Source: Escherichia phage ESCO13. Taken from it: DNA of 64,000 nt. Every line of letters begins with the position of its first letter. Positions within the stretch are counted from its first letter, which is position 1. Where the stretch lies: sequence record NC_047770.1. The stretch is one strand, 5' to 3'. Positions 19,036 to 20,926 of the stretch are shown here, piece after piece. The translations under genes were made by a program, and so were the position numbers. The notes under the pieces were generated by a model that had not been told where the DNA came from, did not search any database, and saw only the letters and a list, made by a program, of their open reading frames with translations.

Positions 19036-19440
19036 TTATTGAAGTTTAAGTGAACCACGAAGACGTTTCTCTTGCTGATCACGGATATATTGTGGAACCT
19101 CGTGAATTGAATCATTACCGTGCCTATTTTCAACAATTAAAGAGATAACTTGATAACCAAACTCTTCAGCAAGAGCTAGATAAGGTTTAAGTTCTTTCTC
19201 TGTGGTTGAAGTATTAGAAACAATAATCTTGTTAAGATTAGATGCCATAGCATCACGAACAATACCCTGACACCATGCGTGTGCTTTACCTACATTTTCT
19301 GGCTTCCAATCGTAAACACCACTCTCTGTGTAATGATATTGATCTGCCTCACAGATAGGCCAATAACCTTCAGAAATAATTTCTGCTACTGTAGATTTAC
19401 CAGCACCTGAAACGCCACGTAAAATGATAAGTTGTTTCAT
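19036..19440 (-). CDS. P-loop kinase, polynucleotide 5'-kinase-like
   Basis: 134 aa; Walker A GVSGAGKST at N-terminus; size and layout like the kinase domain of T4 Pnk. Confidence 0.5.
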   Translation of the reverse strand: MKQLIILRGVSGAGKSTVAEIISEGYWPICEADQYHYTESGVYDWKPENVGKAHAWCQGIVRDAMASNLNKIIVSNTSTTEKELKPYLALAEEFGYQVISLIVENRHGNDSIHEVPQYIRDQQEKRLRGSLKLQ

Positions 19441-20373
19441 TTATCCTCCAAAAAAGTTTTCGATTTTTTCACGTCGCTCTTGCTGATTTAAAGCAGCCCA
19501 TTGAGTCTTCGTAAAATTATTTCGAATCCATTCTAACAAAGCGTAATATTCTTCGTCAACCATTTGTTTGGCATTTTTTGGATTATCCCAAATCAGATCC
19601 CACTTTTTATCTCCACCGCGCATAAGAAACTTCTTAGTAAGATAGTGTGGTGATTTAATTTTTAAAAGTAAGTTGAACGGATAGTTTGTTTCACGAACTA
19701 CAAACCCTTCGTGTTTACAATGTTTAGACATTTCAACAACATCTGAAAACTTAACCATTGGATGAACTTCAGGACGCTTAAATTTGGTGACAGAAGCAAT
19801 TCCATCAAGAGCACCTTCAGGTAACATAAAACTTGTCCCATCAGGATTTTGAATTCTGGCACCAATTAAGTATGCACCTGGTTCTTCTTCGACAATATGC
19901 GGATCAGAAGGATCACAGATTTCAAAAAGGAAAGTTGCTTTTGCACTCTCTGTCCATTTGATGAAATGTTCTATGTCATCACACTCTGAAACAATACGAT
20001 TCTTTGCAATACTTGCAAAATCTGATTCAAGGCTTCCTGTTGTCGATACAATAAGTTGACCTTTATATACACCTACAGAGGCCATAAAACCATTTACTTT
20101 ACGAACCACATCTACAAGTTCATCCAATGGTAGATCTGTGCCATTCTCAAAACGATTAAAAATCTTAGTGAAAGGCCAAATAACAACATTGTCATCAGCA
20201 TCAACAACGATTCCGCGACATTCTAGAAGACGAGAATCAATGCTCCATAAGTTATCCCAGAAAACTTTGTTCTTATACTTAAGAACAGATAGACCAGAAT
20301 ACTCTCCTTCTTTATATGTTTTCTTATGAACTAAACCTTTTTCAACCAAATCGTCGCAATTAAATTTATTCAC
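19441..20373 (-). CDS. RNA-ligase-like nucleotidyltransferase
   Basis: 310 aa; motif I K-V-N-G (RKVNGFMAS), motif IV EGFVVR and motif V LKIKSP in ligase order; flanked by kinase and phosphoesterase genes. Confidence 0.5.
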   Translation of the reverse strand: MNKFNCDDLVEKGLVHKKTYKEGEYSGLSVLKYKNKVFWDNLWSIDSRLLECRGIVVDADDNVVIWPFTKIFNRFENGTDLPLDELVDVVRKVNGFMASVGVYKGQLIVSTTGSLESDFASIAKNRIVSECDDIEHFIKWTESAKATFLFEICDPSDPHIVEEEPGAYLIGARIQNPDGTSFMLPEGALDGIASVTKFKRPEVHPMVKFSDVVEMSKHCKHEGFVVRETNYPFNLLLKIKSPHYLTKKFLMRGGDKKWDLIWDNPKNAKQMVDEEYYALLEWIRNNFTKTQWAALNQQERREKIENFFGG

Positions 20374-20374
20374 A

Positions 20375-20926
20375 TTACTCTCCTTTGATTATTTTGTGAT
20401 GGTCTACAGTCACGATATCTCGTTTACTCATCATAGAAATTATCTCATCAAAATGCAAGATTTTTCCGTGTGCATCCCAACCCACATCTAACATTTTACC
20501 ATAAGCTTCATCAGGGAAAGATCCGTGGGAATGCCCGTGTAGCATGATTGATCCACGACCTTGTTTATTCCAGGAGGCCATAGGGTAATGACTTAAGACG
20601 AAGAACAGCTTCTGATATTTCACTTCGTCATAATACACCACTTCACCATACTCTGCAAGCACTTCTCGGTGTTTGCTGTAGTCATGGTTCCCAACACAGT
20701 AGGTGATATCTCCTTGGAGACGAGAAGCAATTTTACGGGTATCTTCTTCAGTTCCGAAACAGAAGTCGCCCAAATGCCACATCTTAACACCAGGAGTAGT
20801 AGCACATTTGTTCCATGCTTCGATCAAGGCTTCTGTCATGTGGTCCATATCTTCCCACGGACGATATTCAGGAGCAAACTCTCGAATACGTTTATGCATA
20901 AAATGCAAATCGCTTGTAATAAACAT
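20375..20926 (-). CDS. Calcineurin-like metallophosphoesterase
   Basis: 183 aa; D.H (SDLHF), GDFCFG, GNHDY and GHSHG metal-ligand motifs. Confidence 0.75.
   Translation of the reverse strand: MFITSDLHFMHKRIREFAPEYRPWEDMDHMTEALIEAWNKCATTPGVKMWHLGDFCFGTEEDTRKIASRLQGDITYCVGNHDYSKHREVLAEYGEVVYYDEVKYQKLFFVLSHYPMASWNKQGRGSIMLHGHSHGSFPDEAYGKMLDVGWDAHGKILHFDEIISMMSKRDIVTVDHHKIIKGE

Follow-up and report, generated by a model that had tools for sequence, protein, structure and literature searches.

A conserved trio of metallophosphoesterase, RNA ligase and P-loop kinase genes in Escherichia phage ESCO13 as a probable RNA end-healing and end-sealing module

We analyzed a 64,000-nucleotide stretch of the genome of Escherichia phage ESCO13 (sequence record NC_047770.1; hereafter the window), focusing on three adjacent genes between positions 19036 and 20926 that encode a metallophosphoesterase (MPE), an RNA ligase and a small P-loop kinase and that together form a candidate RNA end-healing and end-sealing module (Table 1). 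A preliminary description of this DNA had singled out the same three genes, and their open reading frames (ORFs) do lie there side by side on the minus strand: only one base lies between the MPE stop codon and the GTG start of the ligase, and the ligase stop codon TAA abuts the kinase ATG directly. The stop codon of the next gene upstream, which encodes a PF26092-family protein, overlaps the MPE start (TAATG), and a Shine-Dalgarno-like run is present at every junction of the trio; the trio and the upstream PF26092 gene are packed for translational coupling. Over positions 18500-22300, sequence identity is 100% to Escherichia phage vB_EcoM-Ro121c4YLVW and 97-99.9% to many further Phapecoctavirus members (Stephanstirmvirinae).

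The trio sits inside a long minus-strand block, with GC skew negative up to ~24 kb, which also holds genes for ribonucleotide reductase, ThyX, an NT5C-like nucleotidase, exonucleases, RdgC, a MazG-like pyrophosphatase and an ATP-dependent DNA ligase, and which is the early/middle, replication and nucleotide-metabolism part of the phage genome. A promoter and terminator scan gave no excess of promoter-like sites over shuffled expectation and no strong terminator on the minus strand between ~24.1 kb and 15.06 kb, and a PADLOC scan returned no meaningful defence-system match.

The product of the middle gene matches Pfam RNA_lig_T4_1 (PF09511; E = 5.9e-15, 56.2 bits against a cut-off of 28.3) and phrog_562 (2.9e-70), a family with the PHROG name "RNA ligase and tail fiber protein attachment catalyst", and has ~1,700 homologs, nearly all of ~300 amino acids (aa) and many on ~145-kb phage contigs. 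Across 24 aligned homologs (49-86% identity), R53, K70, K92, N94, G95, E151, E222, G223, K238 and K240 are among the invariant residues, F72 is nearly invariant, and the K-V-N-G and EGFVVR motifs to which the preliminary description had pointed are present in invariant columns, as K92-V-N94-G95 and E222-G-F-V-V-R227. Alignment to T4 Rnl1 by hhalign (probability 96.9%, E = 1.7e-10, covering T4 residues 34-266 only) pairs R53/K70/F72/K92/G95/E151/E222/G223/K238/K240 with T4 R54/K75/F77/K99/G102/E159/E227/G228/K240/K242, that is, with motifs I (the KxxG lysine nucleophile), III, IV and V as well as the Rnl1-specific upstream Arg/Lys/Phe. Mutational work in the Shuman laboratory has reportedly established the aligned T4 positions as catalytic or essential, and K92 is the predicted adenylylated lysine of the phage enzyme.

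Structure comparison leads to the same family. An AlphaFold model of the ligase (predicted local distance difference test, pLDDT, 90.9) scored highest against the ligase domain of the fungal tRNA ligase Trl1 (Trl1-LIG; 22.4, aligned over 279-283 residues) and T4 Rnl1 (22.1, over 249 residues), followed by archaeal Rnl3 (about 16), Rnl5 and Rnl2 (12-13), DNA ligases (≤9.1), the Pnkp ligase domain (8.0) and capping enzymes (≤7.4), and Foldseek ranks these structural relatives in the same order. In a profile search against PDB, T4 Rnl1 was the sole match (7.1e-11), with none to Trl1. This fold ranking and the profile search rule out a DNA ligase or capping enzyme, the alternative named in the preliminary description for its RNA-ligase-like nucleotidyltransferase; judged by profile and model, the 310-aa protein is an RNA ligase of the Rnl1/Trl1 clade with predicted joining activity. 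When one genome for each of 185,579 prokaryotic species was scanned with a sequence pattern, a single ligase-clade match was obtained, on a 137-kb contig of a metagenome-assembled genome, so that the clade looks phage-restricted, as far as a pattern-based scan that could miss distant cellular relatives can tell. A cellular origin or cellular operons for the clade were considered and rejected, the one match in bacterial and archaeal genomes lying on a probable phage contig.

The kinase matches AAA_33 (3.5e-10), phrog_2071 (4.2e-56) and phrog_505, "polynucleotide kinase" (1.2e-7), and belongs to a family of stand-alone proteins of 126-144 aa; neither a haloacid dehalogenase (HAD) domain nor any extra domain was found in its 134 residues by ORF inspection and Pfam scan. 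A profile search against PDB placed polynucleotide kinases ahead of every metabolite kinase: Pnkp1, from the Pnkp1-Rnl-Hen1 repair complex, came first (5.9e-7), then Clostridium thermocellum Pnkp through its kinase domain (2.7e-5) and T4 Pnk (6.7e-5). By hhalign, the phage protein paired with T4 Pnk at a probability of 97.5% (E = 8.3e-12). Its AF2 model (pLDDT 88.4) gave C. thermocellum Pnk (CthPnk; template modelling, TM, score 0.73-0.76) and T4 Pnk (TM 0.71-0.78) as the best Foldseek matches; gluconate-kinase and adenylate-kinase folds were also matched, less well, and the match to a dNMP-kinase PHROG covers only the P-loop (residues 1-35). The Walker A motif G9-V-S-G-A-G-K15-S16, which fits GxxGxGK[ST], is conserved, and D33, the counterpart of the T4 general base D35 (D38 in C. 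thermocellum), is invariant in 23/23 sequences and in all 45 of the 45 covered sequences of a wider cluster. R106 aligns with the T4 lid residue R122 and is kept in 45/54 sequences, and T4 R126 pairs with D109, in a loop whose alignment is unreliable (pLDDT ~74). By both profile and predicted fold, this P-loop protein is closest to polynucleotide 5'-kinases, which bears out its earlier designation as polynucleotide-kinase-like.

The calcineurin-type assignment of the third protein likewise held. The MPE matches Pfam Metallophos (3.1e-5, above the Pfam cut-off), phrog_547, "phosphoesterase" (6.5e-56), and the Aquifex aeolicus protein aq_1665 (PDB 1xm7, COG4186; 3.1e-6 as a single sequence, 2.9e-22 as a profile), with which it has the D-x-H, GD and GNHD motifs in common. 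Its full motif set comprises D6/H8 (DxH), G53-D54 (GD), G79-N80-H81-D82 (GNH[DE]), H113 and G131-H132-x-H134 (GHxH). Of 65 distinct homologs, 64-65 retain D6, H8, D54, N80, H81, H113, H132 and H134, so that the dinuclear metal site is, as far as residues can tell, intact. We propose that it acts as an RNA 3'-end healer, as a 2',3'-cyclic phosphodiesterase and/or a 2'/3'-phosphomonoesterase.

The linkage of these three genes was surveyed in 80 IMG/VR loci carrying ligase homologs at 37-88% identity, fetched with the ligase alignment, and in a second set of 79 loci seeded with the MPE. An MPE gene lies on the ligase strand in 76/80 ligase loci (74 times at ≤2 kb, 67 times upstream and 30 times with a gap of ≤150 nt), and 61/80 have a P-loop kinase from the same cluster. 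This three-way co-occurrence is far above chance, and it identifies the trio as the core of a conserved phage module in which the MPE, called "occasional" in an earlier account of such neighbourhoods (PMC9503650), is the most constant partner of the ligase clade. Other genes follow the ligase less often: a DNA ligase lies ≤3.5 kb away in 27/80 loci, a MazG-like gene occurs in 10/80 (phmmer), and cREC and SIR2 genes occur in 8/80 and 9/80, respectively, so that the conserved core, to judge by the MPE count, needs neither cREC nor SIR2. From the MPE side, a ligase is present in 37 of the 79 loci, a kinase in 42, both in 31 and neither in 31, with a DNA ligase near the MPE in 10.

We next consider the tRNA genes, next to which the trio had been placed in the preliminary description. 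This wording is loose: in the window, a gap of 4.6 kb separates the MPE start from the tRNA cluster, which is encoded on the opposite strand in divergent orientation, and the gap contains ~15 small ORFs as well as a divergent intergenic region. Across the 80 ligase loci, tRNA genes occur within ≤6-kb flanks in 31, and all 177 of these 177 tRNAs are on the ligase strand; at least three tRNAs are present in 16 loci and tRNAs flank the module on both sides in 8, such as a survey locus (L065) with the order 16 tRNAs, a gene of the protein tyrosine phosphatase (PTP) type, MPE, kinase, ligase and 4 more tRNAs. The tRNA link is thus supported much better by distant relatives than by the window itself.

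The window tRNAs are of ordinary length and no introns are predicted in them. One, called as tRNA-Asn (anticodon GTT), of 86 nt at 26329-26414 on the plus strand, resembles Ser/Leu/Tyr tRNAs in its long, type-II variable arm, which includes a 4-bp stem; such an arm is unusual for tRNA-Asn. Separately, the module-flanking clusters of distant phages contain tRNAs of 92-99 nt, for Ile (TAT) and Pro (GGG), with encoded CCA; these long tRNAs (L078:392-486, L050:1049-1140, L041:4-95 and L046:1050-1148) carry an insertion of ~20 nt, largely unpaired, in the variable region.

Beyond the trio, a candidate for a further member is the cREC gene 0.5 kb upstream of the MPE. Opening of 2',3'-cyclic phosphates is the function predicted for the cREC domain by Iyer, Aravind and colleagues (PMC7824862; also PMC9503650), who also described that it is linked to RNA ligases (PMC7824862); here it probably belongs to the module as an accessory member. 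Iyer et al. (2022; Viruses 14:1977, section 3.7.3, PMC9503650) reported a predicted sirtuin-centred RNA-repair neighbourhood in Escherichia phage V5 (rV5) and Proteus phage Mydo that comprises a T4-like tRNA ligase, cREC, a "nucleotide kinase", MazG and a calcineurin-like phosphoesterase. All five families occur on one strand within 16048-21786 of the window, whereas the sirtuin, part of the neighbourhood in rV5 and Mydo, lies outside the window here, ~30 kb from the module: the SIR2 ortholog of the phage (NC_052654.1 104137-104952; L086:11138-11953) is 58% identical to the sirtuin that adjoins the kinase in rV5-like phages. An rV5-like survey locus (L007) has the gene order MPE, two unrelated genes, ligase, cREC (6953-7294), kinase, SIR2 and DNA ligase, with a ligase ~79% identical to that of the window and orthologous MPE, cREC, kinase and DNA ligase genes. 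It differs from the window in that cREC stands between ligase and kinase there and upstream of the MPE here, and in that a PF26092 gene is inserted beside the MPE here. The three-gene set put forward earlier is therefore real as a trio but probably too small as a set, given cREC nearby and the sirtuin at a distance.

The PF26092-family protein has 125 homologs, and 120/120 of those listed carry PF26092; its motifs are IVCAA, RH, QGFID and a C-terminal ELFSExLY, and it looks enzyme-like. With its gene in only 2/80 ligase loci, it is not a core module member and is restricted to the closest relatives. An "anti-restriction nuclease" label attached to this protein in several records was not upheld, as we found no similarity to T4 Arn (E = 6).

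Several other genes recur beside the module in the survey. A dual-specificity-phosphatase-like protein of 155-165 aa with an HCxAGxxRS motif, matching Pfam Tc-R-P, DSPc and PTP-SAK, is encoded just upstream of MPE-kinase-ligase in 30/80 loci (for example L065:4210-4701, L056:3530-3994 and L043:2785-3264) and may be another end-processing enzyme. A protein of ~167 aa beside the module in 32/80 loci (e.g., L017:4586-5038) is HD-hydrolase-like by eye ("H..Q.Y......Y..H ... HDVLEDT"), with no Pfam match at E ≤0.01. NAMPT genes adjoin the module in 14/80 and phosphoribosyl pyrophosphate (PRPP) synthetase genes in 13/80 ligase loci (e.g., L016:2332-4731), and these NAD+-salvage neighbours fit a proposed NAD+-dependent RNA-repair step. 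Scans of the window found no genes for a sirtuin, HAD-type Pnkp, second RNA ligase, dual-specificity or tyrosine phosphatase, HD-like protein, NAMPT or PRPP synthetase.

Table 1. Features of the module and its surroundings in the 64,000-nt window of phage ESCO13
Feature	Position	Strand	Matches and remarks
Metallophosphoesterase (MPE), 183 aa	20375-20926	minus	Metallophos, phrog_547; aq_1665/COG4186 type, stand-alone, dinuclear
Rnl1-type ATP-dependent RNA ligase, 310 aa, GTG start	19441-20373	minus	RNA_lig_T4_1, phrog_562
P-loop kinase, 134 aa, stand-alone, minimal	19036-19440	minus	AAA_33, phrog_2071, phrog_505; polynucleotide 5'-kinase fold
cREC protein, 114 aa	21442-21786	minus	Pfam PF20274 cREC_REC 3.9e-17
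PF26092-family protein, 118 aa	20926-21282	minus	phrog_839 4.1e-47
tRNA cluster, 10 tRNAs	25537-27549	plus	ARAGORN; same genes annotated in phage Schickermooser
MazG-like nucleotide pyrophosphohydrolase, 241 aa	16048-16773	minus	Pfam PRA-PH 2.7e-6, phrog_671
ATP-dependent DNA ligase	17166-18293	minus	Pfam DNA_ligase_A_M 6e-9, phrog_114 2.4e-74
Acidic coiled-coil protein, 108 aa, directly downstream of kinase	18700-19026	minus	sub-threshold Pfam coiled-coil matches
RmlD-like (dTDP-L-rhamnose synthesis)	1046-1888	minus	Pfam
RmlC-like (dTDP-L-rhamnose synthesis)	1882-2568	minus	Pfam
RmlA-like (dTDP-L-rhamnose synthesis)	2445-3323	minus	Pfam
RmlB-like (dTDP-L-rhamnose synthesis)	3332-4324	minus	Pfam

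Some further features of the window deserve mention in their own right. In the MazG-like protein, the pyrophosphohydrolase profile matches only residues 34-85 of 241, the other two thirds being without a domain match. The 108-aa coiled-coil protein bears the public labels "DNA polymerase I" or "hol-like chemotaxis", names that look like propagated errors since its only Pfam matches are sub-threshold ones to coiled coils. Far from the module, at 1046-4324, the dTDP-L-rhamnose synthesis set is complete, with very strong Pfam matches throughout.

The trio can be compared with several known RNA repair systems. The same three chemical steps that we propose for it are carried out in phage T4 by Pnkp (pseT) and Rnl1 (rnlA, gp63), repair enzymes that counteract PrrC (PMC2610378). 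The phage ligase belongs to the same Pfam family as T4 Rnl1, with the same fold and identical catalytic residues, the kinase shares the fold, Walker A and general-base Asp of T4 Pnk, and both sets are phage-encoded in early regions. The T4 set differs, however, in consisting of two polypeptides rather than three, and its pseT and rnlA genes are 1.4 kb apart with four genes between, whereas the trio is contiguous. T4 Pnkp also uses a HAD (DxDxT) phosphatase domain, for which phmmer with T4 Pnk residues 156-301 found no match among the ORFs of the window or in a further 50 kb of the genome; in its place the trio has an aq_1665-type MPE. The replacement of a HAD by a calcineurin-type phosphatase, to which the preliminary description had drawn attention, is thus present but not new, as the MPE module of bacterial Pnkp dephosphorylates RNA 2',3'-cyclic ends (PMC3675462, PMC2190708).

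C. thermocellum Pnkp (CthPnkp) in fact has the same domain set of kinase, dinuclear metallophosphoesterase and ATP-dependent ligase (PMC3675462), and Pnkp1 and CthPnk are the best PDB profile and fold matches of the phage kinase. CthPnkp is nevertheless a single kinase-phosphatase-ligase polypeptide, unlike the separate genes in the order MPE-ligase-kinase here; the Hen1 methyltransferase of Pnkp/Hen1 (C. thermocellum) and Pnkp1-Rnl-Hen1 (Capnocytophaga) was not seen in the Pfam-scanned neighbourhood, and the phage ligase clade is, in contrast to the Pnkp systems, essentially confined to phages. Fungal Trl1 (ligase, kinase and cyclic phosphodiesterase) together with Tpt1 heals and seals by the same logic and likewise uses a P-loop polynucleotide kinase, but the phage ligase has no sequence-level match to Trl1, and no 2H cyclic phosphodiesterase domain of the Trl1 kind was found among the Pfam-scanned module and neighbour proteins.

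Taking the gene packing, the enzyme assignments and the survey together, we consider it probable that the trio is a phage RNA end-healing and end-sealing module acting as one translationally coupled unit, with tRNAs cut by host nucleases as its most likely substrates; its enzymatic activities, its tRNA substrate and its role in counter-defence are what we infer here. Candidate RNA-cutting ribonucleases would be anticodon nucleases, toxin RNases and collateral CRISPR RNases. On the cut RNA, the MPE would take off the 3'-terminal phosphate, possibly after cREC opens the cyclic ester; the 134-aa kinase would phosphorylate the 5'-OH from an NTP, with Asp33 as general base and Lys15/Ser16 holding the NTP; and the ligase, adenylylated on Lys92, would transfer AMP to the 5'-phosphate and join the ends. 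Overall, this would amount to the function of T4 Pnkp plus Rnl1 delivered by three polypeptides, with a non-orthologous 3' healing enzyme.

Several observations weigh against this reading, and they touch each of the three proteins as well as their genomic setting. For the MPE, neither CthPnkp nor lambda phosphatase is among the profile matches in PDB at E ≤1, which consist of aq_1665 and weak matches to a GpdQ-like phosphohydrolase and COG0622, and motif II reads GDFCF, without the second Asp-Arg of GDxxDR; by sequence, the phage enzyme appears to come from another branch than the Pnkp phosphatases, its kinship with CthPnkp and lambda-phosphatase enzymes holding at superfamily level only, so that its proposed 3'-healing role is based on genomic context. 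Its sole solved sequence relative, aq_1665, has no assigned function, and that kinship therefore says nothing on substrate. For the kinase, H36 occupies the position of T4 Arg38 (Arg41 in C. thermocellum), invariably so in close homologs, and the position is V/H/F in the wider family. Arg38 of T4 Pnk is essential and contacts the 3' phosphate of the acceptor, and His36 is, as far as the alignment goes, a real departure from the canonical Pnk active site, one that lowers the claim to membership but weakens the claim to function only a little. The ligase reaches only 25.3 bits against the NCBIfam T4 RnlA equivalog TIGR02308, far under its cut-off of 242.25, and has 310 aa to the 374 of T4 Rnl1, some 64 C-terminal residues fewer. 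The C-terminal domain of T4 Rnl1 gives tRNA specificity; in the phage protein, residues 242-310 are predicted by the model to be all-helical, and the hhalign alignment ends at T4 residue 266. By these scores the ligase forms a distinct, shorter subfamily rather than an RnlA equivalog.

On the genomic side, besides lying 4.6 kb off on the other strand in the window, tRNAs are found within ≤6 kb in only 2/30 of the closest relatives. The surveyed loci are phylogenetically non-independent, so that their counts overstate independent events and describe a pattern with no formal test, and ~40% of MPE loci have no ligase or kinase (≤5 kb), so that the role of the MPE family may be broader or different. 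Finally, in the literature on Phapecoctavirus, phi92 and rV5 we found no experiments on the trio or close homologs. Of the T4-like tRNA-repair set of the preliminary description, the enzyme assignments, the heal-and-seal logic and the conserved module stand, while the correspondence falls short where the MPE lacks Pnkp kinship and the kinase lacks Arg38.

Among other explanations, the chemistry might instead be of the fungal or plant type: cREC would yield 3'-OH/2'-phosphate ends, the kinase would act on the 5' end, the Trl1-like ligase would seal a 2'-phosphate junction, and the unlinked sirtuin would remove the 2'-phosphate with NAD+ as Tpt1/KptA do, leaving the MPE to back-up or by-product processing. 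We regard this as unlikely, even though Trl1-LIG is the top structural match with more residues aligned than T4 Rnl1, a cREC gene is nearby, rV5-like loci have the order ligase-cREC-kinase-SIR2, the phage has retained its 58%-identical SIR2 ortholog, NAMPT and PRPP-synthetase genes adjoin the module in 13-14 loci, and the pathway has been proposed before (PMC9503650). Set against this are the ligase profile, which matches T4 Rnl1 and not Trl1, the scarcity of cREC and SIR2 (8/80 and 9/80) beside the MPE (76/80), and the ~30 kb that separate the sirtuin from the module in this genome. A wider proposal combines a phage counterpart of eukaryotic 2'-phosphate-dependent tRNA ligation (cREC, Trl1-like ligase and NAD+-dependent sirtuin), co-evolution with tRNA clusters in which the module would maintain or assemble phage tRNAs including the long ones, and the aq_1665-type MPE as a previously uncharacterised RNA 3'-healing class; that all of this should hold jointly seems to us a little less likely still.

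The remaining explanations change the substrate or dissolve the pathway. If the kinase and MPE cleaned DNA ends (5'-OH, 3'-phosphate) for the DNA ligase, as an accessory to DNA repair or replication, one could point to the DNA ligase gene 0.7 kb downstream of the kinase, in the same block as exonuclease, RdgC and nucleotide-metabolism genes, to its presence ≤3.5 kb away in 27/80 loci, to the activity of T4 Pnk on DNA as well, and to a weak, sub-threshold match of the MPE to PdeM, a "ligase-associated DNA damage response" phosphoesterase (E = 0.0034; 16.8 bits against 150). We nonetheless find it very improbable, as the constant partner is an RNA ligase (76/80), MPE loci contain a DNA ligase in 10/79 cases against 37/79 for the RNA ligase, distant phages hold the module inside tRNA clusters with no DNA ligase nearby, and the PdeM score is far under its cut-off. 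Comparably slight, in our estimate, is the chance that the module serves the phage's own tRNAs, in maturation, quality control or the joining of unusual precursors, rather than countering nucleases: in many distant phages the module lies within tRNA clusters and in the same orientation, its closest fold relatives include a tRNA-splicing ligase, and some linked clusters have 92-99-nt tRNAs, but the window tRNAs are ordinary in length and free of predicted introns, the bacterial and phage tRNA introns known to us are self-splicing and need no ligase, and the closest relatives retain the module without nearby tRNAs. We give least credence to the three proteins being unconnected, with the P-loop protein a nucleotide or small-molecule kinase, the MPE a (cyclic-)nucleotide phosphodiesterase that might, for example, degrade host immune signals, and the ligase acting alone on RNA or as a tail-fibre attachment factor like T4 gp63. 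The neighbouring nucleotide-metabolism genes (ribonucleotide reductase, ThyX, NT5C-like and MazG), the name "nucleotide kinase" used by Iyer et al., the weaker gluconate- and adenylate-kinase fold matches, the 31/79 MPE loci with neither partner and the "tail fiber protein attachment catalyst" in the PHROG name all lean that way; yet translational coupling and a three-way linkage across very diverged phages (61/80) would be difficult to account for if the proteins had no pathway in common, polynucleotide kinases come out consistently as the top matches of the kinase, and the dNMP-kinase PHROG match is limited to the P-loop.

Parts of this picture were available before. In the GenBank record of phage Schickermooser, the three genes are annotated already as "putative polynucleotide kinase", "putative RNA ligase" and "putative phosphoesterase", and its annotators and Iyer et al. 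(PMC9503650) reached the same reading independently. Known, then, are the gene labels, the rV5-type neighbourhood (PMC9503650) and the use of a metallophosphoesterase as RNA 3' healer in bacterial Pnkp; new here are the constancy of the MPE, the trio as the core, its embedding in the tRNA clusters of distant phages, and a kinase without the canonical Arg. With the concept established and already proposed for this phage group, the advance is incremental.

Defences that cleave tRNA are increasingly recognised, among them PrrC, RloC, collateral Cas13/Cas12a3 cleavage and OLD, and to our knowledge T4 Pnkp/Rnl1 is the only phage repair pathway that has been studied experimentally. If the trio is indeed an RNA end-healing and end-sealing module, aq_1665/COG4186 metallophosphoesterases would gain their first function, and the phage would provide a minimal polynucleotide kinase of 134 aa as well as a compact Rnl1, both possibly useful as reagents. 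Heal-and-seal repair would then be common in large virulent enterobacterial phages and in many environmental and jumbo phages, and carriers of the module would be expected to withstand RNA-cutting defences.

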